Assembly: GCA_964291215.2 (NCBI GenBank)
Contig: OZ219791.1
Location: 1,920,001-1,984,000 of the forward strand
Length of the DNA: 64,000 bases
Origin: Alphaproteobacteria bacterium
GTDB taxonomy: Bacteria; Pseudomonadota; Alphaproteobacteria; MPNO01; UBA830
Reading direction: 5' to 3'
Positions 1 to 42,803 of this stretch are shown one piece after another. A program made the translations under genes and the position numbers. A model generated the notes under the pieces. It was not told where the DNA came from and searched no databases. It worked only from the letters and a program-made list of their open reading frames with translations. The stretch's first letter is position 1; every line of letters begins with the position of its first letter.

Positions 1-245
1 CGGTGACTTCGGCGCCGGCAGGACGATCTCCGGGCGCCCAGCGCCCTCAGGCAGCCGGCAAGCTGCAGACGGCCGCGCGCGTCGACAAAGGCAAACTCCT
101 CGCAGACGACCCAGAGCCGACCGGCTGTCGAACTGCTCACAGGACAGCAGCGACGCAATCCGCGCAACTGCTGCCTCGTCCCGCAATGTGCGGCTGATCT
201 GTGACATGGGACACTTATGCCACGCTGAAACACCGTTGTCCAGCT
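1..245 (-). mobile_element. 5' part of a second copy of the DUF4338-IS4 element, cut by the window edge and by IS66 copy 1
   Basis: Near-identical to about 9732-9984; the match ends at GTTGTCCAGCT, where the IS66 end GTATCTACTCACCCC begins. Confidence 0.85.
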
Positions 246-1846
246 GTATCTACTCACCCCTTGTTGGGTTCTGATTCATAGTGCTCGTTGATGATGTCTG
301 CGGCTTTTCCGTCGAGGGCGATCTGGGTGGCGACGAGTGGGTTGTAGCCGAGTGCGGCCATGGAGGTGAGGTAGCTTGAGCCCCGGCACCATGCTTTTGC
401 GTGGAGCATGGTGCGGAAGCAACCGGACACCTTGACCTTTGCCATCCTGATCTTCTGTTCTCCGGCATTGTTGGTGAAGCTGACGTTGGGGTCGTCTGTG
501 AAGCGCAGGTTTTCGTGTTTCACGAGACGTTCGTGCAGGTTGTGCGCGTCGGACTTGCGTCCACGTTTTCCTTTCGTCGGGATGTCGGGCAGTTCCCTGG
601 CGCCCTGATGGTGCGGTAGCGCTTGCGCACGGCCCGGCGTCGTTCAGGGTCTTGGATGCGCTCTTGTTGACCTTGTGGCAGACCTCGCGGAGCAGGCTCT
701 TCATCAGTCGCGCTCAGCGGTAGCTTCGACGACAAAGGTCAGTTCGCGCAGCAGGTAGCTACCGCACAGCTGGTGGCTACACTGGCCCATGTACGAGGCC
801 CAGGACGCCCTTGTAGCACGGGCCGATCTCTTGCCTCCCGGCCGCGTTTGCGGTGCGGGAACTTGCACGTCAGGGTTCCACGACATGGAGCCACTTGCTG
901 TTGATCCGAAATCGTCGACATCGGGCGTTGCAGGAGGTGCGCCACGGCGGCCTCCTCCCATGACGCATCGTGAAAGCATAGCCGAGGCCTCGAAGAGCTT
1001 GATGCCGGAGATTGCCTGCACGAGCGCGACGGCGCAGGGACAGCATCTGGGCAACCAGCAGGTTGATGACGAGGGCCTGGATGCCGATGCCGTACTGCAC
1101 GGGATGTTTTCGGGGAACCGGCCCCGGGCCTTGCACTTCGGGCATTCCTCGGCGTTGACGCGGCGCTCGACGACCTCGAACACGATGTCGTGCGGCGCTC
1201 CCGATCGACGGGGCCGTCGATGTCGGCGCCGCAGGCGTCGCAGGCCGCGACCGTCTCCTCGACGATGATCTTGCGCAGGTTGTCGCCCATCTGCCGGTTC
1301 GGCTTCGGGCCGTTGCTCCCGGCACGCTCTCGTCCTTGTCCGTCTGTGACGGCGGCAGACCGGAGTTCCGGCTCGTGCGTGGTCTTCTCCAGAAGGACGA
1401 CGATGAGGATGACGAGCAGGATGACGAGGACGCGGATCACGGCATCTTCCGCCACCTTGCCGGCAGCGCCGCGGTCTTGGCCGCTTCGAACTCCTCGCGC
1501 GCCGCGTTGACCGTCGCCATCACCCGGCCTCGACGGTCATGATCGTTGCGAGCATCGCCTGGCGCTCGCTCGGCGGCATCTTCCGGTACTCCGCCGCCCG
1601 GCCTCGCGCTTCATCAGCGCGCCGCTTCCGAGATGCGTTTCCACATACAGATCATGCGGGGGCTGGAGCCCCGGAAGCAGCTGGCACAGCCCGCTCGTCG
1701 CCTTCGATCCAAAGTAGCCCACTGGCGGTCCCCGTCGTTCTCGATAACCACCACTAAACGAATCGGCCTGCAGTGTCAAATCTCCATGAAAACCCGTTCG
1801 TTACTCTACCCCGACATCAAGCCGGAACCAGGGGGTGAGCAGTTAC
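246..1846 (-). mobile_element. IS66-family element (single-transposase, ISBst12-like) copy 1, degenerate, with methyltransferase remnant
   Basis: Terminal inverted repeats GTATCTACTCACCCC / GTAACTGCTCACCCC. Frameshifted transposase fragments FTNNAGEQKIRMAKVKVSGCFRT, LCGSYLLREL, ACDACG, ECPKC. Flanks differ (GTCCAGCT vs CATGGAGG). Confidence 0.9.
1520..1722 (-). pseudogene. Internally deleted Dam-like DNA adenine methyltransferase passenger gene (also 3139-3341, 5398-5550, 18007-18135)
   Basis: N-terminus (M)GYFGSKATSGLCQ..QPPHDLYVETHLGSGALMKR resembles Dam/D12-class motifs X-I. It is joined directly to a C-terminal YRKMPP.ERQAMLATIMTVEAG*; no DPPY core remains. Its stop overlaps the transposase ATG. 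Confidence 0.7.
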
Positions 1847-1854
1847 CATGGAGG

Positions 1855-3465
1855 GTATCTACTCACCCCTTGTTGGGTTCTGATTGGCCATAGTGCTCGT
1901 TGATGATGTCTGCGGCTTTTCCGTCGAGGGCCATCTGGGTGGCGACGAGTGGGTTGTAGCCGAGTGCGGCCATGGAGGTGAGGTAGCTTGAGCCCCGGCA
2001 CCATGCTTTTGCGTGGAGCATGGTGCGGAAGCATCCGGACACCTTGACCTTTGCCATCCTGATTTTCTGTTCTCCGGCATTGTTGGTGAAGCTGACGTTG
2101 GGGTCGTCTGTGAAGCGCAGGACTGACTTTTCGTGTTTCACGAGACGTTCGTGCAGGTTGTGCGCGTCGGACTTGCGTCCACGTTTTCCTTTCGGCGTCG
2201 GGATATCGGGCAGTTCCCTGGCACCCTGATGGTGCGGTAGCGCTTGCGCACGGCCCGGCGTCGTTCAGGGTCTTGGATGCGCTCTTGTTGACCTTGTGGC
2301 AGACCTCGCGGAGCAGGCTCTTCATCAGTCGCGCGGTAGCCTCGACGACAAAGGTCAGTTCGCGCAGCAGGTGGCTGCCGCACAGCTGGTGGCTACACTG
2401 GCCCATGTACGAGGCTCAGGACGCCCTTGTAGCACGGGCCGATCTCTTGCCTCCCGGCCGCGCTTGCGGTGCGGGAACTTGCACGTCAGGGTCCCACGAC
2501 ATGGAGCCACTTACTGTTGATCCGAAATCGTCGACATCGGGCGTTGCAGGAGGTGCGCCACGGCAGCCTCCTCCCATGACGCATCGTGAAAGCATAGCCG
2601 AGGCCTCGGAGAGCTTGATGCCGGAGATCGCCTGCACGAACGCGACGGCACGGCGCAGGGACAGCATCTGGCGACCAGCAGGTTGATGACGAGGGCCTGG
2701 ATGCCGATGCCGTACTGCACGGGATGTTGTCGGGGAACCGGCCCCGGGCCTTGCACTTCGGGCATTCCTTGATCTCGGCGCGGCGCTCGACGACCTCGAA
2801 CACGATGTCGTGCGGCGCTCCCGATCGACGGGGCCGTCGATGTCGGTGCCGCAGGCGTCGCAGGCCGCGACCGTTTCCTCGACGATGGTCTTGCGCAGGT
2901 TGTCGCCCATCTGCCGGTTCGGCTTCGGGCCGTTGCTCCCGGCACGCTCTTGTCCGTCTGTGACGGCGGCAGACCGGAGTTCCGGCTCGTTTTGCGCGTG
3001 GTCTTCTCCAGAAGGACGACGATGAGGATGTCGAGCAGGATGACGAGGACGCGGATGACGGCCTCTTCCGCCACCTTGCCGGCAGCGCCGCGGTCTTGGC
3101 CGCTTCGAACTCCTCGCGCGCCGCGTTGACCGTCGCCATCACCCGGCCTCGACGGTCATGATCGTTGCGAGCATCGCCTAGCGCTCGCTCGGCGGCCTCT
3201 TCCGGTACTCCGCCGCCCGGCCTTGCGCTTCATCAGCGCGCCGCCTCCCGGATGCGTTTCCACATACAGATCATGCGGAGGCTGGAGCCCCGGAAGCAGC
3301 TGGCACAGCCCGCTCGTCGCCTTCGATCCAAAGTAGCCCACTGGCGGTCCTCGTCGTTCTCGATTACCACCACTAAATGAATCGGCCTGCAATGTCAAAT
3401 TTCCACGTAAACCCGTTCGTTACTCTACCCCGACATCAAGCCGGAACCAAGGGGTGAGCAGTTAC
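1855..3465 (-). mobile_element. IS66-family element copy 2, degenerate
   Basis: Same terminal repeats; perfect 8-bp duplication CATGGAGG at 1847-1854 and 3466-3473. Confidence 0.92.
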
Positions 3466-4603
3466 CATGGAGGAAGCGAATGGAGCTGCGACACACTACG
3501 ACGATTGAGGCCGTTTTGGAACATCTGATCGCAAACGGAGCAACGGATCTGGGACGGGTCTTTGGCCAGCTCTTCGAGCTTGCGATGCAAATCGAGCGCG
3601 AACAGTACTTGAAAGCGGGCCACCGGAGCGACAGGGCTATGCCAACGGCTACAAGCGGATCGACACCCCCACTGTTGCCGTTCAGGTGCCAAAGACGGCC
3701 GGTCACGGGGACGATCCGTTCTATCCCCAGTCGCTTGAACGCGGCCAGCGATCTTCTCGCGCCGTCATGCTGGCCGTAGCCGAGATGTACATCAAGGGTG
3801 TTTCCACGCGGCAGGATGTAATGCGCGAGTTCGGGAGCCTGTCCTCTTCTCAGGTCAGCCGGGCTACTAGGTTGCTCGACGAAGAACTCGCCGCGCAACC
3901 GGCCCCTTGGGCTGATGAAATACCTGATCCTGGATGCGCACTACGAAAAAGCCCGCCATGACGGCGTTGTGCGCGATGTCGCAGTGCTCTCGGCCATCGG
4001 AATAGGGGCTGCAGGCACGTTCTGGGGCTCTCTGTGGCGCTCTCCGAGGCCGAGGTCCATTGGAGAGCCTTCCTGGAAAGCTTGCTAGCCCTGCATGGTA
4101 CGACCTTCATCGTCTCGGATGCCGGGCTGAAAGCGGCACGACGCGCGGTGCTGGGCGCGGCGATGTGGCAGCGCTGCCAGTTCCACTTGGCACAAAACGC
4201 CGTGCAGCACGCACCGAACAACGACATCAGGAAACGTATTGGAAAACAGCTCGGAGCCATGCGTCCTCACTCCAAACCGCCGAGGCTGAACTGGGCGCCC
4301 TCGTGGCCAGCTATCGCGACAAGCATCCAGGCTTCCTGGCTGGAAAACAATGCGGGGCTCGCTGTCTTCACCTTGCCCGATGCTCACCGCAAGCGCATGC
4401 GAACCTCGAACGGCATCGAGCGACCGATCCAGCAAGAGCTCAAGCGGCGCACCTCCAAAGTCAGGGTCTTTCCGAACCTCGCCTCGTTGGAGCGCCTCTC
4501 AACCGTGGTCCTCATCGACGAAAAATGGGAAACCGAAACCAAGATCAAATGGGAACAGCTCGATCAGCTTCACGACAATTTCCAGACATCAGGTTGCGTA
4601 ATC
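3466..4603 (+). mobile_element. IS256-family element copy A, degenerate, left end missing
   Basis: Fragments EMYIKGVSTR, WQRCQFHL and RMRTSNGIERPIQQELKRRT in shifting frames; right end ...TTTCCAGACATCAGGTTGCGTAATC. Confidence 0.9.
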
Positions 4604-5273: not shown

Positions 5274-6882
5274 GTAACTGCTCACCCCCTGGTTCCGGCT
5301 TGATGTCGGGGTAGAGCAACGAACGGGTTTTCGTGGAGATTTGACACTGCAGGCCGATTCGTTTAGTGGTGGTTATCGAGAACGACGGGGACCGGCAGTG
5401 AGCTACTTTGGATCGAAGGCGACGAGCGGGCTGTGCCATCGGAGGCGGCGCGCTGATGAAGCGCAAGGTCGGGCAGCGGAGTACCGGAAGATGCCGCCGG
5501 GCGAGCGCCAGGCGATGCTCGCGACGATCATGACCGTCGAGGCCGGGTGATGGCGACGGTCAACGCGGCGCGCGAGGAGTTCGAAGCGGCCAAGACCGCG
5601 GCGCTGCGTGCGGCCGGCAAGGTGCCGAAAGAGGCCGTGATCCGCGTCTTCGTCATCCTGCTCGACATCCTCATCGTCGTCCTTCTGGAGAAGACCACGC
5701 GCAAAACGAGCCGGAACTCCGGTCTGCCGCCGTCACAGACGGACAAGGACGAGAGCGTGCCGGGAGCAACGGCAAGGGCCCGAAGCCGAACCGGCAGATG
5801 GGCGACAACCTGCGTAAGACCATCGTCGAAGAGACGGTCGCGGTCGATGCCTGCGACGCCTGCGGCGCCGACATCGACGGCCCCGTCGATCGGGAGCGCC
5901 GCACGACATCGTGTTCGAGGTCGTCGAGCGCCGCGCCGAGATCAAGGAATGCCCGAAGTGCAAGGCCCGGTTCCCCGACAACATCCCGTGCAGTACGGCA
6001 TCGGCATCCAAGCCCTCGTCTCCCCCCAACCTGCTGGTCGCCCAGATGCTGTCCCTGCGCCGTGCCGTCGCGTTCGTGCAGGCGATCTCCGGCATCAAGC
6101 TCTCCGAGGCCTCGGCTATGCTTTCACGATGCGTCATGGGAGGAGGCCGCCGTGGCGCACCTCCTGCAACGCCCAACCCTGCATGTCGACGAGACCGGAT
6201 TTCGGATCAACGGCAAGTGGCTTCATGTCGTGGGACCCTGACGTGCAAGTTCCCGCACCGCAAGCGCGGCCGGGAGGCAAGAGATCGGCATCATCCCGTG
6301 CTACAAGGGCGTCCTGACTGCTGGGCCTCGTACATGGGCTATGACCAGTGTAGCCACCAGCTGTGCGGTAGCCACCTACTGCGCGAACTGACCTTTGTCG
6401 TCGAGGCTACCGCGCGACTGATGAAGAGCCTGCTCCCTGCCACAAGATCAACAAGAGCGCATCCAAAACCCTGAACGGGGCCGACCGCCGGGCCGTGCAC
6501 AAGCGCTACCGCACCATCCTCACTCAGGGTGCCAGGGAACTGCCCGACATCCCGACGAAAGGAAAACGTGGACGCATAGCAAACGCGCACAACCTGCACG
6601 AACGTCTCGTGAAACACGAAAACCTGCGCTTCATAGACGACCCCGATGTCAGCTTCACCAACAATGCCGGAGAACAGAAGATCAGGATGGCAAAGGTCAA
6701 GGTGTCCGGATGCTTCCGCTCCACGCAAAAGCATGGTGCCGGGGCTCAAGCTACCTCACCTCCATGGCCGCACTCGGCTACAATCATCACGTCGCCACCC
6801 AGATCGCCCTCGACGGAAAAGCCGCAGACATCATCAACGAGCACCACGACCAATCAGAACCCAACTAGGGGTGAGTAGATAC
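5274..6882 (+). mobile_element. IS66-family element copy 3, degenerate
   Basis: Both terminal repeats present; perfect 8-bp duplication CCCATTTG at 5266-5273 and 6883-6890. Retains LHVDETGFRING and KTSRNSGLPPSQ. Confidence 0.92.
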
Positions 6883-8010
6883 CCCATTTGATGTATGCCT
6901 TGGTTTCGGTTTCCCATTTTTCGTCGATGAGGACCGCGGTTGAGAGGCGCTCCAACGAGGCGAGGTTTGGAAAGACCCTGACTTTGGAGGTGCGCCGCTT
7001 GAGCTCTTGCTGGATCGGTCGCTCGATACCGTTCGAGGTTCGCATGCGCTTGCGGTGAGCATCGGGCAAGGTGAAGACAGCGAGCCCCGCATTGTTTTCC
7101 AGCCAGGAAGCCTGGATGCTTGTCGCGATAGCTGGCCACGAGGGCGCCCAGTTCAGCCTCGGCGGTTTGGAGTGAGGACGCATGGCTCCGAGCTGTTTTC
7201 CAATACGTTTCCTGATGTCATTGTTCGGTGCACGGCGTTTTGTGCCAAGTGGAACTGGCAGTGCTGCCACATCGCCGCGCCCAGCACCGTGCCGCTTTCA
7301 GCCCGGCATCCGAGACGATGAAGGTCGTACCATGCAGGGCTAGCAAGCTTTCCAGGAAGGCTCTCCAATGGACCTCGGCCTCGGAGAGCGCCACAGAGAG
7401 CCCCAGAACGTGCCTGCAGCCCCTATTCCGATGGCCGAGAGCACTGCAACATCGCGCACAACGCCGTCATGGCGGGCTTTTTCGTAGCGCGCATCCAGGA
7501 TCAGGTATTTCATCAGGGGCCGGTTGCGCGGCGAGTTCTTCATCGAGCAACCTGGTGGCCCGGCTGACCTGAGAAGAGGACAGGCTCCCGAACTCGCGCA
7601 TTACATCCTGCCGCGTGGAAACACCCTTGATGTACATCTCGGCTACGGCGCGAGAAGATCGCTGGCCGCGTTCAAGCGACTGGGGATAGAACGGATCGTC
7701 CCCGTGACCGGCCGTCTTTGGCACCTGAACGGTAACAGTGGGGGTGTCGATCCGCTTGTAGCCGTTGGCATAGCCCTGTCGTTCCGGTGTCCGGTGGCCC
7801 GCTTTCAAGTGCTGCTCGCGCTCGATTTGCATCGCAAGCTCGAAGAGCTGACCAAAGATCCGCCCCAGATCCGTTGCTCCGTTTGCGATCAGATGTTCCA
7901 AAACGGCCTCAATCGTCGTAGTGTGTCGCAGGTCCATTCGCTTCCTCCATGAATGTTTTACAACTCCATGGGATAGCACGATGGCGCTGCGTTTCACTGG
8001 GGGGCTAGCC

Positions 8011-10005
8011 CTGCCGTGTCATGACAAATCTGGTTGACAATGGTTTACGTGTTCACGCGTGTCTTTGTCCATCCCGGAACCCGATTTCCCGGCCGATTTG
8101 GTGACCCAGTGCGGCGCTGGTGTGTCTGGCCACATGATCTGGTGACCCGGGCGTGCTGCGGTAGCCGCCGAGATGGGCGACCAGGTGCACCGCATCGGCG
8201 AGACGCTCCGGTTCCTTCAGGGCGTACTTGTGTGCGTAGTCGCGCAGGAAGGCGAGTTCGCTGTCGGTGAACATCAGCTGCGGCTCGCACCTGGCGGCCG
8301 AGCAGGGTCATGACCATGATGCGCGATGACGGCGTTGATCGCCCGCTGCAGGCGGTGCGGAACAGCAGGTGTTCCACCCTGCATCCGGATTTGAGCACGT
8401 AATCCTCGATTCGCCAGCGCTGAAGGTAGAAGCCGACGATGTCGGCCGCCTCCTTCGCCAACCCGCACGGTGGTCAGCAGGCACCGGGATCCTCACCCTC
8501 GGGCGCTCCCTGACCCCGTGCAGGGACACCGGCTTCGCGCTGGGGGCGGTGCCCGTCACGGGCAGCGTGACGGACCGCAACTCGCCAGGCGCTTCTGTCG
8601 CGCGAGCCTTCTTCCGGCTGGCTTGCTCCGTCAGTCCCTCGATCTCAATCAGGCCGCCGGCCATGACGGCGAACAGCCTTCCCTCCTTCAGCACCCTGTC
8701 ATGCTTGGCGCGCAGATCGACGCGGGGCAAGCGCGTGTCGAACAGCTCGAAGATGTCGGCTTCCCGACGGAGATGACGCGCGTCTTGCCGCCGGGGTGGC
8801 AGCGCCTTGAACCCCTCGAGCTGCGGCGTGTCTCCTGCGACCGGGGCTTCACCGGACCCAGCACCCCGAGTGGCAGGTCAGTCACCGCCAGGGTCGCGTG
8901 CAGGCTTGAGGCCCCGGTCTGGTTCTCACCTGCAGGCCGTCGCAGCCGGGAGAAGTTCAGGTCCGTGCCGCAAGAACCGTCTTCTGGCCACGGATGCGCC
9001 GGATGCTGCCGGTGCGGCGCAAGAATGTTCGCCGGCGTGATCTCCGATTCGACGGGCGACCATCCGGTAAAACGCATTGATCGCGGTGTTGTCGGCGCTG
9101 GGAGACGCATTGATCTTCTGACCGGCCGCCAGAAGGCCGGCGCTCCAGGCGCGCAGAAAGTCGCTTGTCACCCCCCTCCAAACTCGTTCTGCGCCCAGTC
9201 GTTCAGACCTTCGCCCGGCGAGGGCGCATGATCGACCTCCCCAGCTTCCTGCGCGCTCCAGTTCGGCCACGAAGACCGTCTTCACCGTCTCCCAGTCCTG
9301 CCGGCCTTCGGTCCTGCACAGGAAGTTGGCCGCGCGCAGGCAGGGTAACCTTCATCGGCAAAACTGAGCCATGGTCGAAACGGTCCTCGAAGTCACGCGG
9401 CGCAGGATGCGCACATGGCTGGCTAGATGCGGGCAGAGCACCTGATCAAGAAACGGCTCAGACAGACGATCCGCTGCAGGTGGTTCCGGCGCTGCCCGTC
9501 GTTCCATCCAGCGGTCCCGCGCCGCGCAGCGGCGGCAAACCCCGCCACCCGTGCGCCGAGCCCACGAGATATTGGCAGCCGGCGAAGGTCGTCGCGGGTG
9601 TTCACGCGCAATCAGCGTGACCGCTCGGTCAATACGATCCCCGACCACGATGATCTCGAGATCCCGAATGCGCGCGCCGGAACCTCTGCAGCGATATCAT
9701 CCACCAACAGGCGAGGCCGGCGGTCGATTGTCGGTGACTTCGGCACCGGCAGGACGATCTCCGGGCGCCCTCAGCGCCTTCATGCAGCCGGCAAGCTGCA
9801 GACGGCCGCGCGCGTCGACAAAGGCAAACTCCTCGCAGACGACCCAGAGCCGACCGGCTGTCGAACTGCTCACAGGACAGCAGCGACGCGATCCGCGCAA
9901 CTGCTGCCTCGTCCCGCAATGTGCGGCTGATCTGAGACTGTGACATGGGACACTTATGCCACGCCGAAACACCGTTGTCCAGCTAAAATTTCCGTGACAT
10001 GCGAG
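8011..10005 (-). mobile_element. IS4-family (IS50/Tn5-like) element with N-terminal DUF4338-like region, degenerate
   Basis: YLQRWRIEDY-VLKSGCRVE matches the IS4 YREK motif. GWNDGQRRNHLQRIVCLSRFLIR is DUF4338-like. Ends CTGCCGTGTCATG / CTCGCATGTCACG; direct repeat (G)GGCTAGCC(C) on both sides. Confidence 0.82.
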
Positions 10006-10231
10006 GGCTAGCCCCCCCCCCCCAGTGAAACGCCTCAAAGCGCAAACCTCAGACAAATTTCCAGACATCAAGTTACAGTACCCTCGTCGTCCCAATGGCG
10101 CTTTCGGATCCTGCCGGCACGGGCGAGACCGTTTTTCCGGCTCGCCGGACAACAAAAAGAATCCTGTGTCCACTCGACAATTGAAAGGACTTGGCCGATT
10201 ATCGGCACACCATCTGGCTCAGGAGGCTTAC

Positions 10232-17645: not shown

Positions 17646-17882
17646 TGAGGAGCCGGCGGCGGCGGCGTCCACCGGGCCGCGGGCTGGATCCGCGTCGGAA
17701 CAACCAGGGGGTGCGGCCGCTACCACCGACATAACCGGGCCGACAAGCCGAAGAAGGACATCTGGCCCGCTCCGCAAGGGCAGGAAGCGGACCCTCAATC
17801 GCTGAACCCTGCAACCAGCACAGGATGGCGCTTGGCTCCTCCTCCGCAGTGCCGGGACAAAACCGCAACCAATGCGGAAAAC

Positions 17883-20663
17883 GTAACTGCTCACCCCCTG
17901 GTTCCAGCTTGATGTCGGGGTAGAGCAACGAACGGGTTTTCGTGGAGATTTGACACTGCAGGCCGATTCGTTTAGTGGTGGTAATCGAGAACGACGGGGA
18001 CCGCCAGTGGGCTACTTTGGATCGAAGGCGACGAGCGGGCTGTGCCAGCTGCTTTCGGGGCTCCAGCCCCCGCATGATCTGTATGTGGAAACGCATCTCG
18101 GAAGCGGCGCGCTGATGAAGCGCAAGGCCGGGTGATGGCGACGGGCGGCGCGCGAGGAGTTCGAAGCGGCCAAGACCGCGGCGCTGCCGGCAAAGTGGCG
18201 GAAGAGGCCGTCATCCGCGTCCTCGTCATCCTGCTCGACATCATCATCGTCGTCCTTCTGGAGAAGACCACGCACGAGCCGGAACTCCGGTCTGCCGCCG
18301 TCACAGACGGACAAGAGCGTGCCGGGAGCAAGGGCCCGAAGCCGAACCGGCAGATGGGCGACAACCTGCGCAAGATCATCGTCGAGGAGACGGTCGCGGC
18401 CTGCGACGCCTGCGGCGCCGACAATCATCGACGGCCCCATCGATCGGGAGCGCCGCACGACATCGTGTTCGAGGTCGTCGAGCGCCGCGCCGAGATCAAG
18501 GAATGCCCGAAGTGCAAGGCCCGGTTCCCCGACAACATCCCGTGCAGTACGGCATCGGCATCCAGGCCCTCGTTATCAACCTGCTGGTCGCCCAGATGCT
18601 GTCCCTGCGCCGTGCCGTCGCGCTCGTGCAGGCGATCTCCGGCATCAAGCTCTCCGAGGCAACCTGCCTCAGCTATGCTTTCACGATGCGCTCGCGTCAT
18701 GGGAGGAGGCCGCCGTGGCGCACCTCCTGCAACGCCCGATGTCGACGATTTCGGATCAACAGTAAGTGGCTTCATGTCGTGGGACCCTGACGTGCAAGTT
18801 CCCGCACCGCAAGCGCGGGCAAGAGATCGGCCCGTGCTACAAGGGCGTCCTGGGCCTCGTACATGAGCCAGTGTAGCCATCAGTTGTGCGGCAGCCACCT
18901 GCTGCGCGAACTGACCTTTGTCGTCGAGGCTACCGCGCGACTGATGAAGAGCCTGCTCCCTGCCACAAGGTCAACAAGAGCGCATCCAAAACCCTGAACG
19001 AGGCCGGGCGCTACCGCACCATCAGGGCGCCAGGGAACTGCCCGACATCCCGCCGCCGACGAAAGGAAAACATGGACGCATAGCAAACGCGCACAACCTG
19101 CACGAACGTCTCGTGAAACACGAAAACCTGCGCTTCATAGACAACCCCGACGTCAGCTTCACCAACAATGCCGGAGAACAGAAGATCAGGATGGCAAAGG
19201 TCAAGGTGTCCGGATGCTTCCGCTCCACGCAAAAGCATGGTGCCGGGGCTCAAGCTACCTCACCTCCATGGCCGCACTCGGCTACAATCATCACGTCGCA
19301 ACCCAGATCACCCTCGACGGAAAAGCCGCAGACATCATCAACGAGCACTACGACCAATCAGAACCCAACTAGTAGTATGACATTATTGTATTGATGGGCA
19401 TAGTGACTTCAGTTTCGTCCGGGCATCCTTCGTCGTGAAACGCCAGTCGACAGTGACATCGGCCGCATTGCGGCGCTCGACCCACGCCACGGTCTCCCGC
19501 AGCATGGTGTCGCGGTCGGGAATGCGTCGCCGAAGACACTGCCGCGACAGCGCACCGATCTCGATCTCGGCCATGTTGAGCCAGCTCCCGTGCTTGGGCG
19601 TGTAGCGAAACTCGAACCGCTTTCGCACCCGCCTCGCCTCCTCGGGCTCGAAGGCTTCATACAGCGACTGTGCGTGTTCAGATTGTCCAGCACGATCTTC
19701 CTGTCGGGGAAATGGTCGTCGGCAAGCTCCCGGATGAAGTGCGCCCAGTCCCGCGGCGGTCGGTGACTTTCACCGTACGCCAGTTCTCGTTGGGCGCAAA
19801 GGCCATAAAGAGGTTGGCCGTGCCGTTGCGCTCATATTCATAGTCGACCACCTCCGGCTGACCGGAGGACGGGGGATGCGGGTTTCCTTCGTCTGCTGCC
19901 GGCTGGTCTCAGCACCTCGTCCCCGGCAAAGTCCCGCTGATAAGTGTCAAGCACATCCGCCGCCACGAACTGTGCGCTCCGGTGCGGTGGAATGCACCAG
20001 TACTGCTTCAGCCACGGCTTGATCTCTTTTTTTTTAGAGTCTTCCTGACCGTCTCTTCTGAAATGCTCTCGACGATTTCCATCTCCACCAGACGGCCGGC
20101 AAGCAGCTTCAGCGTCCACAGCCCTCGGGCGGGGACGAACAGGCCAGAGCGATCAGCTTCGCCTCCATCGCCCCGTCCAGCCGTTTCGGCCGGCGGTTCA
20201 CCTGCTCCTTGCGGCTGAGGGCGGCCTCCAACCCCTCCAGAACGCAGCGCTTGCGCAAACGCTCGACTGTCGCCGTGCCGATGCCCAGCCCTTGCGCAAT
20301 GTCGGCATCGACAAGCCGAGCGCCCCCTCGTCGGCCAGCATCAGGACCTGTGCCCGGCGCCGACGCCAGGCGGCCCCGGTGCCGTCGACGATCGCCTTCA
20401 GATCCTGGCGCTCCTGCGTTGAAAGGGTAACCCGGTAGAGCTTCCTGCCCCGAGAGTTGGCCATATGCGCCGCTCCTGTCATTGCGCCGAAGACCTGCGG
20501 GTATGCCCGTTGTCCGGACCTGCGCATGGGGCTGCCTGCCTGTTCGGCATCTGCCCGTGTGGATATCGGCACTGTCCAGATTCCAACGAACGCCGACACG
20601 GAAATACTACCCACAAAAAACCATCAATACAATGCCGGTGGACTACTAGGGGTGAGTAGATAC
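17883..20663 (+). mobile_element. IS66-family element copy 4, degenerate, with nested IS630
   Basis: Both terminal repeats present; perfect 8-bp duplication CGGAAAAC at 17875-17882 and 20664-20671. Confidence 0.92.
19372..20646 (-). mobile_element. IS630-family element, degenerate
   Basis: TA duplication (19370-19371, 20647-20648). Terminal repeats GTAGT(N8)ATTGTATTGATGG. Motifs YTPKHGSWLNMAEIEI, VLDNLNTH, KPWLKQYWCIPP; A9 slippery run at 20027-20035. Confidence 0.92.
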
Positions 20664-20907
20664 CGGAAAACATGGCATGGCGCCAGTGCCCGCCAACCTC
20701 ACCGCGCATCCCGGCGCACGAAACCGCTCCGGGTGACGCTGGAACTCCCTGACAAAAGCCCGTCAAACGGATCGAAATAACAACACCTCACCGCACGAAC
20801 GAGTGCTTGCAATAAAGATATCCGAGAGCTCAGAATATCAACCCGTTGTAATACAGAGATTAATTTTCATAACTTGTGTAACTCTGACATTGTCGGGAGA
20901 ATTCGTG

Positions 20908-23627: not shown

Positions 23628-24573
23628 TCAGTTCCCCATTTCGAACAGGCGCCGCGCATTGCTGCCGAGAACGATCCCGGTTTCGGCTGCCGTGAGCCCG
23701 GCCTCGCGTACATCCGCGACGCTCGCCGCGCGGTCGCGCGGCACCGGCGGGTAATCGGTCCCGAGCAGCACCTGTTCGGCGCCCATCGTGGCGACGGTGC
23801 AGGCGATGGCCGGTGGATGGAAAGTCTGTGTGTCGACGTGGATGCTGCGCAGCTGATCGAGGAACGACCCCTCGATATTGTCCAGCTCCCAGGCGGGTAC
23901 GCCCGGGCCCGGCTTGCGCGAGTGGCGCACCTCCCAGCCCTGCTGGATCCGGCCGGCATAGAGCGTGATCGCCCCGCCGAGGCGGCCGAGCAGGAGCTTG
24001 AGTTCCGGAAGGCTCTCCATGAAGCCACTGAAGGCGAGCCGGGCGGCGAGGATCGTCATGTCGTTCGGCCTGCCGATGAGCTCGACCAGGCGGAAATCCG
24101 GCATGTGTTTGGCGGCGAGGCAGCTGTCGCTGCTGTGGACGAACACGACCGCGCCGAGCTCATGGCAGAGTTCGAAGAACGGTTTCGCGACCGCGGAATC
24201 GAGAAACTCTCCTCCTGCCGTCGGCGAGACGATGATTCCTTTGAGGCCGAACTCGCGGACGGCGCACTCCATGGTGCATTGCATCGCCGCCCGCCGGATC
24301 GGCGAGGCCAAGCGCGACGAAGCTGTCCGGGTGGTGCTGCACCAGCCCGGCGGCGAACTCGTTGTAGCGAAGCGCGATGTCGGCGGTGTCGATGTCGGGC
24401 TTCCCGACCGCCACGTCCATCATTCGCGGACCGAAGATAACGCTTCGGTCGATGCCGGACCGCTCCTGCTTCTCGACCAGGGCCTCGGGGTCGAGCATGT
24501 TGGGCGGAAGCCCGACGCCGACGCGCTCGCACAGTGCTCGGTCGTTGAGGTGGCTGTGCACGTCGACGATCAT
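23628..24573 (-). pseudogene. Amidohydrolase_2 family protein (ACMSD-like decarboxylase/hydratase), frameshifted near 24280
   Basis: MIVDVHSH in one frame; AVREFGLKG, VFVHS and LLGTDYP in another. Confidence 0.8.
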
Positions 24574-25727: not shown

Positions 25728-25910
25728 CAGGACCATTCTGTTGTCGCGATCGGCAGCGGACAACCGTGTCAGAGTGGCCGTTCTTGAAGTTGGTGGCACC
25801 GTCTCAAGGTCGGAACCGACATATCGACAACGAAATCCGCTCCCGAATGGACCTCCTGATCTGCCTACAACGCCCCTCGTCGGACGAAACCGGACAAAAG
25901 AAGAGCCCTG
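25728..25910. mobile_element. 183-bp MITE copy 1
   Basis: Ends CAGGACCATT...AGAGCCCTG; perfect 10-bp duplication CAAACAACGC (25718-25727, 25911-25920); inverted copy at 30226-30409. Confidence 0.88.
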
Positions 25911-30225: not shown

Positions 30226-30409
30226 CAGGGCTCTCCTTTTGTCCGGTTTCGTCCGACGAGGGGGCGTTGTAGGCAGATCTGGAGGTCCATTCGGGAGCGG
30301 ATTTCGTTGTCGATATGCCGGTTCCGACCTTGAGACGGTGCCACCAACTTCAAGAACGGCCACTCTGACACGGTTGTCCGCCGCCGATCGCGACAACAGA
30401 ATGGTCCTG
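30226..30409. mobile_element. 184-bp MITE copy 2 (inverted relative to copy 1)
   Basis: Reverse complement of 25728-25910 with a few changes; own 10-bp duplication CTGTCGGGGA (30216-30225, 30410-30419). Confidence 0.88.
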
Positions 30410-30506
30410 CTGTCGGGGACGGCTTGACCCCGGGACTCGATAAGCTACAGTAATTGCAAATCGGTAGGTTTCCGCCCGATTGGCGGAAATGCGGCCGCGC
30501 AGAAGA

Positions 30507-30693
30507 ACCCTGCGGGAGAGGCGGACCAGACACCGCCGCCGACGGAGCAACCGCCCCGGAAACTCTCAGGCAAACGGACCGCAGGGGGATGCGACTCTGG
30601 AGAGCAGTTACCGGCGATGCCGGCGGCTCACCGAAGGAGTAAGCCTGGCCGTGGCCGGGTGAATCTCTCAGGTTTCCCGACAGAGGGGGCGCA
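30507..30693 (+). ncRNA. Tandem glycine riboswitch
   Basis: Two aptamers: GGGAGAG..CCGACGGAGCAA..AAACTCTCAGGCAAA and CTCTGGAGAG..CACCGAAGGAGTAA..AATCTCTCAGG..GACAGAG, directly upstream of gcvT. Confidence 0.95.
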
Positions 30694-35356: not shown

Positions 35357-37512
35357 GTAAGCGTTCGTTCGTGCGGTGATGACGATCTGCGCCGAGGTTT
35401 GTTTTGGTGATTCGGAGAAGGGGGCCGATAATTTTTTTGGCGGTGCCATCAGGTCGTGCATGGTCATGTGCATCGAGGATTTCGTGTCATCATCGGGTGC
35501 GGACGCCGCTGGCGACGTGCCGCGGTCGTCGTGTCGTGATTCGGCCACCTGGAAATCCCTGTACGATCGCGAGCGTATTCGAGCCGAGGCGGCGGAGGGT
35601 CTCTGTGAGGAGCTGCGCTTGCAGGAGGTGGAGGAGCGCAGCCGCACGAATTCCCTGAAGGCGATTTTCGAGAGCAATCGTGAGAAGCTGTCAGCTGCCC
35701 GTGCGGAGGTCAGGGAAGTTCGGCGGACGGCGAAGCAGTCTCTTGCGCTGAAGCAGGAGGTTGCGCGTCCGGGCCAGCTTCTTGCCGAGGCCGGCGCGCG
35801 GAAGCGGTCGACGGTGGTGTCGCTGCGCATGGAGAATGCCAGCCTGAAGACCGCGATGAAGGTTCTGGAGGGTCGGGGCGCTCGAGGCGGAGAACGACAA
35901 GCTTCGTTCGAACAGGTCGTACGGGCGCAAGAGCGAGAAGAGGCAGCGGGCGTCATCGAAGCGCGGCCAGCAGTGCGGCACTCCTGGCCGCGGCCGGCGC
36001 TCGAGGAGGTGGAGGAGCGGCTGGAGGTGGCAGAGGACGCCTGCTCGTGCTGCGTTGCCAACGGTTCGCACCAGGATCATCGTGATCAAAAGCGGCGGAT
36101 TGTCCGCCGGGGCTGTGACTGCCCCGGTTCACCGAGCGAGGTGGCGGCCGGCACCGCATTCGGGTGTGGACGCATGTGCTGCACGAGCGCGTGCATGCGG
36201 CCCTTGCGCCGCGTCCAGGGGCTTTCGCCGGGAACGCTGGCCAGCGAGCCGGATGCTGCCCCTGTTCGAGCCGCTTCGGGACGGGACCCCCGCGCACCGG
36301 GGTCTGCGCCATGCCGATGCATCCGGGCCCCGAGGGAGGTCCGGAAGTCGTGCCTGGCTCCGGACATCGGTCAGCCGTGACGCGGTCCTCTTCCACCCCT
36401 CGCGCAGCGCCGAGGTCGCGGCGAAGCTGTTCGCGGACGCCCCCATGTCTGCGACCGCTACGGCGCCTGCAAGAAGCTGGCGCGCCTGTGGTCCTTCATC
36501 ATCCTGTGCTGTTGCCGGGTGCATTGTCGGCGCGACTTTCCGGGCTGCGCTGGCCGCAGCTGGAGGGGTGGGAATGGATCGATCGCGGAGATCTGCCGCC
36601 TGAACACGGCTCGACTGTCTTGATTCCGGCGGCGTTCGAGGCCGCGCAGGCGGCGCTGGAGACTGCGGTCGCTGTTTGCGGAAGCGCCGAGGCTTCCGAA
36701 AGCGGCGCCGGAAGGCAGGCCGCTGCGCTCAACCATCGCGTGTTCGTCGACCATGGACAACAATTTCGGGGAAAGGGCTGTCAGGGGCCCGGGCGGAAGC
36801 CCGGCTTCGGTTCCGACAGCATGGACGGCTGTCATGTACACGGCACGGTCGCGAGGGGCGGCCTCGACATTCTGCGCTGGCGCCTGCGCGGAGAACGGCG
36901 GCCCGGCGATCTGTCGCCCTGGTTGCTGTGAGCCCGGAGAGGCGGCGGAGATTCGCAGCGCCGCCGTGAGGTCGAGGGCGCGACTTCATGGTCGCGCAGT
37001 GCTGCGACGATCACGGAGCGGATCCCATCGCCCGCGCCTTCTGCCGCCGCCAGCCCCGAAGCTGATCACGTCGGACACCGAGCCGCCGCTCCGAAGACCC
37101 TCGACGAGCTCCGCCCGCTGACACTACCTCGGATACACGCGCCTGGTCGGCGCGCAGATGCGCTACCATGCGGCGAGCCGCTGCTTCTCGACCGCCGCAT
37201 GGACCGCGCGCTATAACACCACGCCCGTGCCCGCTACGACCGACATGACAGAAGCCGAAGAAGGACATCTGGCCCGCTCCGCAAGGACTGGAAGCGGACC
37301 CTTTGAACCCTGCAACCGGCACAGGATGGCGCTCAGCTCCTCCTCCGCAGCGCCGAGACAAAACCGCAACCAATGCGGAAAACACGGCATGGCGCCAGTG
37401 CCCCTCACCGCGCATCCCGGTGCACGAAACCGCTCCGGGTGACGCTGGAACTCCCTGACAAAAGCCCGTCAAACGGACGAAAACAACAACACCTCACCGC
37501 ACGAACGCTTAC
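35357..37512 (+). mobile_element. IS66-family element (second type) with coiled-coil transposase and downstream DUF4338 remnant, heavily degenerate
   Basis: Terminal repeats GTAAGCGTTCGTTCGTGCGGTGA / GTAAGCGTTCGTGCGGTGA. Fragments FHPSRSAEVA, MDNNFGERAVRGP, HYLGYTRLVGAQMRY, KPKKDIW. No matching target duplication. Confidence 0.85.
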
Positions 37513-37582
37513 GTTCAGCTTCATAACCGAACTGAATCACAAACCCTTGAAACCGGTCAACTCTTTTTGGGTCAGGCTCTAA
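37513..37582 (+). mobile_element. Possible IS5-family right-end remnant
   Basis: Ends TTTTTGGGTCAGGCTCTAA, resembling IS5-group termini (recognition from memory only). Confidence 0.4.
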
Positions 37583-37751
37583 GGTCGACAGCCGGTTTCA
37601 GCCGAGGCGGTTCATTGCGGACGGCACGGCGAACATTCACCGGTTCATTGTAGTGGCAGCGTATTTCAAGGGATCAGGGGATTTGACTGTGGGCCGGAGC
37701 TGGGGATTGAGTCCGGGTTTGATGACGGGAGGCGCGCTGGAGACCCTCGGT

Positions 37752-38705
37752 CTACCTGAGCCGTTCGACAAAAAGGCTCCAGAAGTATTCGGCGGCACCC
37801 TCCATGGTGAGAGGGCTGTCGCCGGCTCGTCCGAAATGCGCCATCCCCAGAGGCTGGAGAAGCAGCGTGTAGCCGTCGTCGGACACGGACATCGACTCAT
37901 TGTAACTGTTCCCGCTGCCCAGACCGCCTGACGAGTAGTAGACCCCGTCGGTGCCCAAAGGGCCGCCCAACCAGATGCCGCAAACTGCCCGTTCCTCGCC
38001 CCCGACGAAGGCTCTCGCCTCGAAGCGGTTGGCGTCGACCTGTCGAAAGCTGGTTTCCACCCTGTCGTTTCGTGCTTGGAGTTCATTCAAGGAGTTCTCG
38101 AAATAACGGGCGACATACTCGAACGATGCACCAAGAAAGGCGTGGCGATCGCGGTCGGTGAACTCGGTCCTGATCCTGAGATTGCTCGAACGCGGACCTG
38201 ACGCTGCCGCGTCGGCGCGGGCGGCGGCAGATTCCGTAGGTTCCGCTACAGAAGACCGGGTGTGTGCCGTGTGTGCTGTGTCCGCCACCTGGCGAATGGC
38301 TTGGGCGACTTCCAGAAAGCCGTCGTCCAGGATTGCATGCTTGGTGACGGGCTTACCGTCCTCGGGGACTGCCATCAGGCGGCCGAATGGCGCTCCTTTC
38401 CAATCGCAGGGGCGGAGGATGACGGGGATGACGCGAGCTTCGCCGCGACCGTGACGCTCCAGCGCGCGCGTTATCTCGACATCGTAGCAATAGTCGGAGG
38501 CGATGAAGTCGGCGCTGACCAGCAACAGGATGATGTCGGCCGTGTCGAGTTGCTCGCTGATCTGGTCGTGGAGTCCGTCGCCCGGAACGATGCGGCGGTC
38601 GTGCCAGGTGGTGATCGCACCCTGGCGTTTCAGGCCCGCAAGGTACTTCTCGAGCTCGTTTCTGAGATCTTCGTCCGTGTGCGAATAGGACATGAAGACA
38701 TGCAT
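37752..38705 (-). CDS. TIR domain-containing protein with unassigned C-terminal domain
   Basis: VFMSYSHTD, WHDRRI, ADIILLLVSADFIASDYCYDVE, VIPVILRPCDW; intact ORF. Confidence 0.9.
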   Translation of the reverse strand: MHVFMSYSHTDEDLRNELEKYLAGLKRQGAITTWHDRRIVPGDGLHDQISEQLDTADIILLLVSADFIASDYCYDVEITRALERHGRGEARVIPVILRPCDWKGAPFGRLMAVPEDGKPVTKHAILDDGFLEVAQAIRQVADTAHTAHTRSSVAEPTESAAARADAAASGPRSSNLRIRTEFTDRDRHAFLGASFEYVARYFENSLNELQARNDRVETSFRQVDANRFEARAFVGGEERAVCGIWLGGPLGTDGVYYSSGGLGSGNSYNESMSVSDDGYTLLLQPLGMAHFGRAGDSPLTMEGAAEYFWSLFVERLR

Positions 38706-38910
38706 GGCTGCTGGAACTCCCTGGTGGCTCCGTGACAATTCGGCCTTGAGGGCCGGAGGCGTGCTGGATCGTCCGCAGCGCGGCCCGGCCGAAAATAGTG
38801 GTTTATGCCGTTACTGCCTCGAAATGGGAACGATGTCGCTGAAGCTCAATGCGCAACGGCGAACACGAGGGGTTTCTCTTGCGCGCAAGGCTACAAGCTC
38901 TTTGCGCCAT

Positions 38911-39240: not shown

Positions 39241-41041
39241 CTAGACCGAAGTTCCGTATGATTTCAGCGGGAGAATCACACCAAGTGATTATTGGTAAAA
39301 TTGCATGATGGCGACATGGATATATTCCCATGTAACGGTGAATTTTACTCTTTACAAAATACGATGCAATGCCTGTATGCGTTGCCATGTGCGTCGACAT
39401 CGTCCCCAACCGCAATTCGCCCCCCGCCGTCCTCCTGAGCGAAGGATGGCGCGAGAACGGAAAGGTCAGGAAACGCACCATCGCCAATCTTTCCTCCTGG
39501 CCCATGGAGAAGGTGGAGACCCTGCGGCGTCTCTTGAAGAACGAACCCCTGGTTAGCCGTGCCGATGCCTTCGACATCGTCCGCTCCCTTCCTCATGGCC
39601 ATGTGGCCGCGGTGCTGGGAACCCTGAAGAAGCTGGACCGGCGGATCGACCCGAAGCCCTCTCCCAGGCGGGACCGGGTGCTGGCCCTGATCGTGGCGAG
39701 GCACCCGCTTCGAAGCTGGCCACGGGGCTGGCCGAGGCCACCGCGGCGAGTACCCTGGGCGAGATCCTCGAGGCGGAAGGGGACGACCTCTACGACGCCT
39801 GGCTCCTGGAGCGCCAGGAGAGGATCGAGCGGTCTCTGGCGGCACCTCGAAGAGGGCTGTCTGGTGCTCCTGACCTCGGTGTGGATGGAGGGACGAAAGT
39901 GTCCCTTGGCCCGACGCGGGCACTCCCGGGATGGCAAGAAGGGCAAGCTGCAGTCGGCCTTCTGTGTGATCGGGACGGGTGTCGGTGCGGGTGTTCCCCG
40001 GCAACACGGCGGATCCGGCCACGGTGTCCTCACAGATCGCCACGCTGCGGGAGCGGTTCTCCCTCGCGAAGGTGGTGGGGGACCGGGGGACCAAGGCGCG
40101 CGAGGAGGTCAAGCCTGCGGGCCAGCGCCTTGAGGGGCATCCGCGCCCTTGTGGAGGCCGGCGACGTCGAGATGTCGCTCTTCGACGAGAGAGACCTGGT
40201 GGAGATCACCAGCAATGCGTATCCCGGCGAACGCCTCATGGTGTGCCGCAACCCGCTGCTGGCCGAAGATCGGGCTCGCAAGCGCCAGGAACTGCTCAAG
40301 GCCACCGAGGCTTGAACCGATTGCCGCAGCGACACGGCGAGACAAGCGCCGCCTCGAGGGGGCCTTGAAGATCGGGGAGCGGGTCGGCAAGGTCATCGGC
40401 AGGTACAAGGTGGCGAAGCACTTCACGTGGTCCATCGACGATGACGGTGTCTTCACCTATGGGCGCGATGAGGCTGCCGCCGAGGCCAGGCTCCTCTACG
40501 TGATCCGCCTGCCGCAGAGCGCACTCGACGGTCCCGGCACGGTGCGCGCCTACAAGCGGTTGAGTTCGGTGGAACAGGCCTTCCGCAGCCTGAAGACCGT
40601 GGACCTGAAGGTGCGTCCCGTCTACCACCGCACCGGGCCCATGTCTTCCTGTGCATGCTCGCCTACTACATCGAATGGCACATGCGACTGAAGCCCATGC
40701 TGTTCGACGACGAGGATGCCGAAGGCGGCCGTCCGTCGTGGCGCCGGCAGAAGTCTCGGCGAGCACCCGGGCCAAGGCGGCAACGAAGAGGACGCCCGGG
40801 GGTGGCACAGCTTCCGTACCCTCATCGATGATCTCGCGACCATCACCCGCAACACCGTGGCGCCCCGCCTTGCGGGCGCCGAACCCTTCCAGGTCACCAC
40901 GCGGCCCACGCCGCTCCAGAGAAGGGCATTCAAACTCCTGGGCGTGCGCCTGTAGCGTTCTCGGTAGCGACACACCTGATTATTTCAAACGTCAATACAT
41001 TCATGATGATACGTCTGATCGGCGCTGGAAATTCGGGCTAG
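39241..41041 (+). mobile_element. IS1634-family element, degenerate
   Basis: Terminal repeats CTAGACCGAAGTTCC / CTAGCCCGAATTTCC; DIVPNRNSPPAVLL, RRGHSRDGKKG, YKRLSSVEQAFRSLKTVDLKVRPVYHR. Confidence 0.9.
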
Positions 41042-41157
41042 ATCTTTCTGCAATCGGCAACGTCCAGACTATTTCCGTCCAAGGCGCGATGCGCCACCGC
41101 CGGTCCGTCCTGTCGTGATCTGCAGGGACTAGGACCACGACGATCCCATGCTAATTC

Positions 41158-42803
41158 GTGCCCGCGCGGAAATGACCGTTTTGGCTGACCCTCCGGCGAA
41201 ATTTCTGGTTTGATCGCCCTTCCGGGTCCCGCCCCGTTTTCGGAGGGATTCCTGCTGATTCGCAGTGGTATCAGGGCTCTTTCAGCCGAGAAGCCGGACA
41301 AGCGGCTCCGTTCCTGCTCTCGGCGGGTGGGTGGGGTGGAGGGACGCCGCCGTCAGGCGGCGCGTTTTCGTCGTCGTCGGGCCTGTCTGTGCAACAGCAG
41401 GCGGTGGACATTGAAGGCCGCCATGGACAGCGCCACCATCCGCGCAAAGCCGTCCGCCCCACAGGACTCGGTCCATGCCGCGTTGCTCAAGATTATTGAT
41501 CGCCGACTCCACGGCCGGATGCTGTCGGCGCATCTCCCGGAACGTCGTCTCAGCTTCCCGTTCCCGGTCCGCCCGACCAAGCTTTCCCTTCTTCGGCAGC
41601 TCGTCCAGCAGCTCGTCCAGTGCAATCCGGGGACTGTGGAACCCGCGATCGAAACTGCACAGGTCGGGGAAGCGAGCCTGTGCTTCCCGGATCATGGGCA
41701 CCGCATGGTCCACGTCACTGCCCTCCCACAGGATTCGGTGGTGCAGGAGGAAGCCGTGCTGATCCTCCAGCACGGCCACCGGCACGCCGAGTTCCACCGG
41801 CACTTGCCCTTCACGCACCAGCGCTCCTCGAAGATCGAAAACACCTTCTCTTCCTGCGGGATCTTCTCGCCTTAGGCGGCGGTCTACTTGGTCGATCTGC
41901 CGGCGGGCATGGTACGACTGGATCTTGAGAATCCTCAAGGCTCCGACGCCCTTCTCCACAAGTGCCGGAACCGTCTTCTGCGCTCCAACTCCCGGCTGTC
42001 GTCGAGGTACCATCCTCCGAAGAGGCCCGCCGGGTCTGTCGAACCTTCTGAAAGCGCCTCTTCAGCCCGCGGCTCCGATGCTGCCACTGCCGCCACCCCC
42101 GCGAGCACGGCTGCGCGGCCGCGCACCAGACAACGCATCGCATCCCACAGCAGGTTGACGTCCGTCGGGTAATGCACTCCACCACAAACGAATCGCAGCG
42201 GCCCCGCAAGGGACCTTGCCGCTCTTGTACTTGCCGCTCTTGCGGACCATCGCATGGCCGCTCTCCGCCACCAGTTGCGATACCTTCTCCAGCACTTCCG
42301 GCGTCAGATGGCTCACGTTCTCCAGTACCGTCCGATACCTGTACCTCGTGTTGTCCCGGATATCGCCGTGGTCCAGGAACTTGCGAACCGTCTCGTTCAC
42401 CAGCTCGTGCAGATGATCAAGGTCATACCCCAAGCCCTGCTTCAGGACACCAGGATCTTCCACAGCGCCGGGACGCCCTTTCCTGTGGGACACTCTCGGA
42501 AGAATCCCCTCCTCCAGGATCTTGAACAGCCGGGTCGGCATACACGTGCTGAATCCCGCGCAGCATCGGTGGGATGTCATCCCGCGAGTCTTCGCTGAGA
42601 TCGATCTTCTCGATCGCAACCTGGCCCAATTCCAGCTGCGGGCGGATAACGTTTCGCATGGCAATTCTCGCGAAGTTTTCCGAAAATCCGGCGGATTCCC
42701 GGTCTGATCGGCCAATTCCCGCCCCAAAGCGAGATTCTTCGTCCCTTCTATATCAGGATTCCACAAGAAAAATCAAGCAATTTTATATTTTTTTCGCAGG
42801 CAC
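41158..42803 (-). mobile_element. ISNCY (ISDol1-like)/IS5-related element, degenerate
   Basis: Terminal repeats GTGCCCGCGCGGAAAT / GTGCCTGCGAAAAAAAT; 6-bp duplication TAATTC; SRDDIP, HYPTDVNLLWDA, SFDRGFHS, RRQHPAVESAINNLE. Confidence 0.85.

Follow-up and report, generated by a model that had tools for sequence, protein, structure and literature searches.

The question raised by this locus is why its insertion sequences (IS) have been cut up by small deletions to a degree not seen in the genes around them. The locus is a stretch of 64,000 nucleotides from an alphaproteobacterial genome (contig OZ219791.1, positions 1,920,001 to 1,984,000; hereafter the window), in which IS copies of several families lie among single-copy genes. 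An earlier note on this DNA had proposed that deletions, many of them bounded by microhomology, are concentrated in IS copies, and that the mode of decay depends on copy number. Our genome-wide analysis leads to a different description: the deletions are a shared pool of events with a fixed size of 5–7 nt from a lineage-specific process, not separate microhomology events in each copy. Probably, this process has been amplified by deletion-biased conversion between the copies.

The genome holding the window (G000, hereafter the host genome) is a metagenome assembly of 6.15 Mb in two contigs with 64% GC, and approximately one third of it is repeated DNA. Its addA scores above the cut-off of an alphaproteobacterial model, and the sequencing runs in which its DNA occurs carry sponge or host codes, which makes the source a sponge-associated alphaproteobacterium. 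Across the genome, 90 repeat families were seeded. For the family IS66-A (approximately 190 copy-equivalents, four of them in the window) we analyzed 121 full-length copies against an ancestor rebuilt with an outgroup as guide; the other families were compared with outgroup-free references, and their loads are therefore lower bounds. An intact relative of IS66-A in genome G294 (86% identical) agrees with the long alleles, which identifies these as ancestral and the deletions as derived; the rebuilt frame is open over 520 codons.

A copy of IS66-A carries a median of 32 deletions (approximately 290 bp) versus 23 substitutions, and the four copies in the window, with 26–32 deletions each, are indeed as shredded as first described. 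Weighted by copy, 3116 of 3886 deletions (80%) are 5–7 nt long and none is 4 nt; most deletions of 11–14 and 18 nt overlap a 5–7 nt event. These longer sizes resemble two or three 5–7 nt events, but deletion growth at old junctions was rejected, as a rough count did not exceed chance. Pooled over 71 families, gaps of 4, 5, 6, 7 and 8 nt numbered 191, 1088, 1960, 1097 and 385, respectively, giving a spectrum with a peak at 5–7 nt, a trough at 3–4 nt and no peak at 9 nt. A group II intron family (family 6, comprising the 5′ end and reverse-transcriptase pieces) carries a load of 20 per kb as well, so the load is not tied to DDE transposition. Around 45 IS66-A copies are themselves interrupted at one identical base, near position 1364 of 1620 (e.g. 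C2:2641969-2643753), and one examined copy holds a degraded group II intron with a GTGCG 5′ end and reverse-transcriptase pieces.

As a single-copy control, we used 1.06 Mb from a sister genome (G001; 5.0 Mb, approximately 93% identical to the host genome), in which 778 genes were called and 539 were kept, all of them single-copy genes that aligned and passed a frame filter. At least two lesions in the host genome were found in 37 of the 539 genes; these pseudogenes (50.9 kb) contain 26 stops, 37 deletions of 1–2 nt and 10 of 5–7 nt, and carry 0.036 non-synonymous changes per codon in excess. Single-copy pseudogenes decay mostly by substitutions and 1–2 nt indels, as had been claimed, and the comparison of deletion density gave 14 deletions per kb in IS66-A against 0.2 per kb (5–7 nt) in the pseudogenes, an approximately 70-fold difference. 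The caveat that IS copies may simply be older does not hold: the exact 8-bp target duplication is kept in 74 of 105 scorable IS66-A copies, while the pseudogenes show the non-synonymous excess, and age therefore does not explain the load.

The deletions are, however, not confined to IS DNA. A single-copy gene at 23628 carries a 5-nt deletion at 24276, and the P450 gene, which had been described as roughly full length, is together with its adjoining gene short of 13, 7, 5, 8 and 1 nt relative to the sister genome (48856–50293). The isochorismatase gene is a single stop-free frame of 206 aa, over which the sister genome has no alignment. In a single-copy alignment of 743 kb, the host genome is short of 19 pieces of 5 nt, 82 of 6 nt and 21 of 7 nt (122 in total) and the sister of 3, 8 and 2 (13), in a comparison without outgroup polarization in which 8 of the 122 could be duplications in the sister. 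In intact genes, 32 in-frame losses of 6 nt stand against 9 of 3 nt. The 5–7 nt deletion process is thus genome-wide at a low rate and one-sided toward the host genome.

Next, we analyzed how the deletions are distributed among copies. The 121 IS66-A copies share 153 distinct deletions; the loss within copy 4 that had been singled out is real (74 nt between 8-nt repeats) but common to 88 of the 121 copies. Approximately 80% of the marker pairs more than 30 bp apart fail the four-gamete test, and the haplotypes are therefore mosaic and not tree-like. The r2 drops from 0.40 to 0.04 within 30 bp, and only 1 of 7260 copy pairs differs by 0.5% or less. Isolated 5–7 nt deletions exceed a frequency of 50% at 41 of 75 sites, compared with 1 of 19 for 1-nt deletions and 0 of 24 for duplications; likewise, 26 of 106 deletion alleles but only 15 of 218 derived substitutions are at high frequency. 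At 139 of 151 common deletion sites a single size is found, which fits one origin per deletion. Rare isolated 5–7 nt deletions in the seven largest families amount to 7 per 915 rare substitutions (0.008), the same order as the ratio of approximately 0.01 obtained by rough arithmetic for the pseudogenes. Given this resemblance, new events need not be commoner in IS DNA, although fast spread would hide such events. Local conversion was rejected, since adjacent copies are scarcely more alike than others.

Microhomology is not what defines the junctions: of 708 deletions of 5–7 nt, 408 have 0–1 nt of it (mean 1.58 versus 0.80 at random), and 123 of 149 junctions do so in a second species of the same genus (G002; core genes 72–76% identical to the host genome). 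The deleted piece has an oriented purine-pyrimidine-C start, which reads G-pyrimidine-C in the host genome and A-T-C in G002, with T rarely following. The log-likelihood of this start motif is 304 and 266 in the two genomes, compared with nulls of 54–61 and 35–46, respectively, and the motif is strong in G002 (A71 T78 C64). Sites deleted in 120–121 of the 121 IS66-A copies have no strict motif.

Comparison with other genomes showed that the signature has a patchy distribution in the genus. It is strong in two species, the host genome and G002, with differing motifs and slightly different sizes, and occurs in G002 independently. Pairwise gaps of 4, 5, 6, 7 and 8 nt in G002 numbered 20, 728, 917, 106 and 6, respectively, in a sample of 20 regions, picked for the most part where matches were partial; 8 identical intact copies exist in addition. 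The G002 copies are mosaic as well. In G004, 85 pairs with 4302 substitutions gave 5, 20 and 3 gaps of 5, 6 and 7 nt, and no such gaps were found in 7 pairs of G003. In G294, 29 distinct copies of the IS66 relative, drawn from the full-length end of 71 mostly full-length matches, diverge by 0.4–3.3% with no gap of 5–7 nt, and four of them share one 12-nt gap. Decay of IS66 in G294 proceeds by substitution with almost no deletion, and many of its approximately 50 full-length copies have one TAG stop inside the catalytic region.

Does copy number set the mode of decay? In part, it does: the number of 5–7 nt gaps per substitution rises over the copy-number bins from 0.011 (fewer than 8 copies) through 0.11, 0.14 and 0.26 to 0.29 (more than 60), with a Spearman correlation of 0.64 across 50 families of at least 600 bp, and two-copy repeats reach 0.03. 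However, miniature inverted-repeat transposable elements (MITEs; 180–190 bp, 46 and 110 copies) show only 0–0.02, and multi-copy genes with open frames as well as a young IS66 family also depart from the trend. The latter (family 22; 12 near-identical open-frame copies outside the window) limits to the window the claim that every transposase is shredded. As the MITEs, the G294 IS66 copies and the repeats of G003 and G004 lack the 5–7 nt peak, copy number is not sufficient. Two apparent two-copy repeats (C2:13846-14839 with C1:95960, and C1:66894-67789 with C2:2559644, both in the host genome) have 14–18 gaps, mostly of 5–8 nt, at 17–31 substitutions, far above other pairs, and are perhaps members of unseeded families.

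Position within an element matters too. In 11 families, the load is 1.7 per kb within 50 bp of the element ends and 15 per kb beyond 300 bp, at a substitution load that is not lower at the ends than inside. This edge gradient over approximately 300 bp and the spared MITEs point to a minimum repeat length, although they are also expected under conversion or under selection on the ends.

How could a rare event become so common in repeats? In the reading we favor, rare 5–7 nt deletions would arise all over the genome through a nuclease or template-skipping step with a footprint of this size. Pairing of ectopic copies, probably requiring 100–300 bp of flanking homology, would then place a long and a short allele in one heteroduplex, in which MutS would pass the 5–7 nt loop while rejecting point differences. 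If loop removal outweighs loop copying, the shorter allele is favored; each deletion would pass from copy to copy, and the family would shrink in concert until no intact frame is left. The accessible text of one study describes MutS as recognizing mismatches and indels of 1–3 bases but not large loops (PMC8918686); given this range and the open frames of mutS, mutL and recA, only loops of at least 5 nt would be expected to get through. In a toy model, the mean load stayed unchanged (onefold) without bias, while a bias of 0.75 with 10 conversions per copy raised it 60-fold and placed 48% of the alleles above one half.

Several observations weigh against biased spread between copies. Linkage between deletions and nearby substitutions is weak (r2 0.15 versus 0.36 between substitutions at 5–10 bp, over backgrounds of 0.07 and 0.10, respectively), which needs either near-zero co-conversion or recurrence. 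Toward the element ends it is the distinct deletions that thin out (4.5 versus 43–47 per kb), at an unchanged mean frequency. The longest identical runs have a median of 326 bp and fit exchange blocks of 80–400 bp better than 20–40 bp, and the per-copy load has a variance of 26.5 versus 11.6 for independent sites, indicating residual family structure. In G002, deletions are common to six copies while 240 of 314 substitutions are private, ATTGCG sites are hit in 3 of 3 cases and the deletions at one anchor come in two sizes, 5 and 6 nt; together, these findings imply that recurrence contributes. Single-copy events do not show the start motif (of 114 events, 15 are AT-compatible, where 17% is expected), and the range of MutS leaves the upper size limit and the motif unexplained, so that these need an enzyme with a fixed footprint; among the candidates searched, none was found for the 5–7 nt deletion. 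Moreover, conversion is deduced from how the alleles are distributed among the copies.

Part of these points would be explained if the pairing of copies itself triggered a nuclease that cuts out 5–7 nt recurrently at preferred sites, a process that would parallel in bacteria the repeat-induced point mutation (RIP) of fungi. The thinning of distinct events over approximately 300 bp, the spared MITEs, the weak linkage and, in G002, the strong motif, the ATTGCG hits, the two products at one anchor and the sharp size limits all speak in its favor. We nevertheless regard it as unlikely, as there is one product size at nearly all common sites though sizes vary between sites, the sites deleted in practically every IS66-A copy lack a strict motif, the rare-event ratio in IS DNA is close to that of single-copy DNA, and the size class is present in single-copy genes. 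Both this account and biased conversion can share one enzyme. A more far-reaching and doubtful version is that an enzyme excising a fixed 5–7 nt at purine-pyrimidine-C from repeat-paired DNA both makes and imposes the deletion; it would constitute a defence guided by homology only, free of guide RNA, that sterilizes IS and group II intron families in two species.

It is improbable that an intact transposase multiplied in trans elements that were already damaged, with ordinary unbiased recombination mixing the copies later. The young target duplications, the less deleted ends, the overdispersed load and the existence of an intact IS66 family whose terminal bases are similar agree with such a history; parent-daughter pairs are almost absent, though, the group II intron family is equally loaded, unbiased exchange cannot lift the mean load, and 32 deletions versus 23 substitutions per copy would still need a 100-fold higher deletion share. 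Even less credit can be given to ordinary microhomology slippage in old, unselected DNA, with IS copies merely older than pseudogenes. Microhomology is about twice the random level, a few large events (12 and 74 nt) are bounded by repeats of 5–8 nt, and the accessible part of a study on pseudogenes elsewhere places 43% of small deletions at microhomologies and finds multiples of three favored (PMC6054270), but the size spectrum, the predominance of 0–1 nt junctions, the youth of the copies and the lack of the signature in G294, G003 and G004 repeats of similar divergence all contradict it. Finally, an assembly or polishing artefact in repeats would be a natural suspicion for a metagenome assembly, but is scarcely credible. 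Separately assembled contigs of three runs (X18, X19 and X20), at depths in the thousands, hold the same indel alleles, which also speaks against the read errors that the earlier note had considered, and a 201-base X18 contig matches IS66-A copy 4 without gaps. Over 18.7 kb of single-copy DNA, X18 matches exactly, and X19 matches without a gap at 11 substitutions. The assembly may itself derive from X18, which would then not be independent; substitutions separate X19 and X20 from X18. The contigs of X19 and X20 break at repeats. Furthermore, the single-contig genomes G294, G003 and G004 are without the pattern. Sponge metagenomes with small word shares carry no weight in this evidence.

Repair genes and known enzymes were inspected for the source of the deletions. 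All eight genes tested (recA, mutS, mutL, addA, recJ, xseA, polA and rnhB) have open frames in the host genome, with addA scoring above the cut-off of the alphaproteobacterial addA model, and loss of a repair gene was thus rejected. Ku, Argonaute, NucS, an ATP-dependent ligase, topoisomerase IB and endonuclease V were looked for in the host genome and not found. A nuclease cutting beside a recognition site at fixed distance is not supported, as no flanking motif occurs within 34 bp. Mini-hairpin skipping was dismissed because the ends of the deleted piece pair no more than controls, mismatch-triggered cutting because variation within deleted zones is barely raised (0.039 versus 0.026), and UV or TC-deaminase damage because C-to-T at TC is raised only 1.22-fold. 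RNA-primer-sized deletion by DnaG would fit the purine start, but DnaG primers begin with two purines and exceed the deletion size, according to the accessible text of PMC2978363; dnaG has one match per genome except in the sister genome, and strand counts of deletions (4 versus 4) are too few for a bias; phage-type primases may still be candidates. CRISPR self-targeting was rejected as well, since none of the 96 type I-G spacers and none of the 16 type II-C spacers matches the host genome over its length. The type I-G array has 97 repeats and cas genes (C1:574173-581180), and a compact Cas9 of 1046 aa lies with Cas1 and 17 repeats at C2:2063982-2069580.

The IS-excision enhancer, reportedly a polymerase with microhomology end-joining (PMC9943667), shares with the present system that it acts on IS DNA and makes deletions. 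It was rejected as the cause because the host genome holds only a remnant of approximately 95 codons and G002 none; in G262, which has a match of 927 aa, the IS66 DNA examined (two small pieces only) is without the 5–7 nt peak. A remnant of an AEP-TOTE protein in the window (43912–44197), 52–58% identical to the 927-aa G262 protein, is possibly a relative of this enhancer.

Among known systems, fungal RIP introduces C-to-T changes anew in each copy via a methyltransferase-like protein and spares short repeats. In both cases, decay is far faster in repeats longer than some minimum than in unique DNA; here, the changes are deletions, mostly with one product per site, and no corresponding enzyme was found among the candidates searched. 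Judging by its title, a 2009 study by Cordaux reportedly describes gene conversion among non-functional IS of Wolbachia wBm that maintains the elements. The likeness is that dead IS copies of a symbiont exchange sequence, but here conversion appears to spread damage. According to the accessible text of another study, Wolbachia IS copies are mostly degraded by substitutions and deletions, with no fixed deletion size mentioned there (PMC3205602). The closest parallel in principle is deletion-biased nonallelic gene conversion as described by Assis and Kondrashov (2012), who, in the accessible part of the paper, found that length differences between Drosophila and primate paralog pairs are resolved toward deletion by approximately 3.4 to 1, a cooperative shrinkage of neutral paralogs (PMC3280953). 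Its features of exchange and deletion bias are both seen in the present system, exchange also in the G002 copies; the differences are a bacterial setting, families of 5–190 copies, a narrow size class, an oriented motif and the absence of any copy whose frame is intact. Bacterial pseudogenes also lose more than they gain, in part at microhomologies and likewise with Ku/LigD absent, yet with power-law deletion sizes and an excess of multiples of three, as far as the accessible text goes (PMC6054270); the signature described here has a 5–7 nt peak, is lineage-restricted and is approximately 70 times denser in IS DNA. In the literature searched, which was without subscription papers and supplements, a fixed-size deletion signature in bacterial repeats is not described.

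Within the window, the individual claims about elements fared unevenly (Table 1). The collapse in IS256 copy B was recovered as a loss of the 12 nt between two GCCGT (3761–3782 versus 7636–7655), as was the terminal repeat at 37512 that is one TTCG unit short. The names IS66, IS256 and IS630 rest on Pfam and IS1634 on annotated plasmid matches; the second IS66 type is named from one weak tblastn hit, and the elements labelled IS4 and ISNCY, for which Pfam and plasmid matches gave nothing, stay unconfirmed.

Table 1 Repeats, controls and single-copy loci in the 64-kb window
Feature	Position in window	Strand	Observation
IS66-A copy 1	246..1846	-	32 deletions (212 bp), 0 private
IS66-A copy 2	1846..3465	-	30 deletions (202 bp), 2 private
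IS256-family copy A	3466..4603	+	Family of ~96 copy-equivalents; median 19 deletions per copy
IS66-A copy 3	5274..6884	+	26 deletions (216 bp), 1 private
IS256-family copy B	6883..8008	-	12-nt GCCGT collapse near 7645
Repeat family 12 (earlier label IS4, unconfirmed)	7989..10033	-	0.67 gaps of 5–7 nt per substitution at 0.7% divergence
IS66-A copy 4	17883..19372	+	31 deletions (313 bp), one of them the 74-nt loss; 0 private; read-derived contigs show the same indels
IS630-family copy	19369..20649	-	Family of ~69 copy-equivalents; each copy with a median of 18 deletions
Second IS66-like element (families 15/23/10)	35448..37512		Median 34 deletions per copy; end one TTCG unit short
Second IS66-like element, end pieces	17662-17882 and 20664-20802		
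IS1634-family copy (families 20/75)	39242..41036		Median 29 deletions per copy
Repeat family 34/52 (earlier label ISNCY, unconfirmed)	41158..42742		28 pieces missing versus intact G294 relative, 18 of them 5–7 nt
Control MITE, 183 bp	25728..25910	+	46 copies (second: 30226-30409); 0 gaps of 5–7 nt
Control MITE, 193 bp	42803..42980	+	110 copies; 0.02 gaps of 5–7 nt per substitution
Amidohydrolase gene, single-copy	24271..24281		Broken by 5-nt deletion
Redoxin and P450 genes, single-copy	48200..50370		Deletions of 13, 7, 5, 8, 1 nt versus G001; X18 identical, X19 gap-free
Single-copy DNA	57155..61995		Three 6-nt deletions (57159, 60722, 61989), the low-rate genome-wide signature

Further observations concern other parts of the window. 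A gene for a TIR-domain protein (37752–38738, minus strand) sits between two IS copies. A tandem glycine riboswitch (30503–30685) precedes gcvT-H-PA-PB and, relative to the sister genome, misses one 5-nt repeat unit at 30533. Close variants of the region 43100–44140 occur at several-fold depth in the runs X18–X20, which suggests a mobile piece common to other community members.

The sharp, oriented and species-specific 5–7 nt signature points to a DNA-processing enzyme. If biased spread between copies is true, one small deletion, wherever it arises, would reach nearly every copy and could inactivate at once a transposon family with hundreds of members while the repair genes are kept. This bears on the question of how IS bursts end in young symbionts, which would then be testable through the size spectrum, the frequency spectrum and the edge gradient of the deletions.

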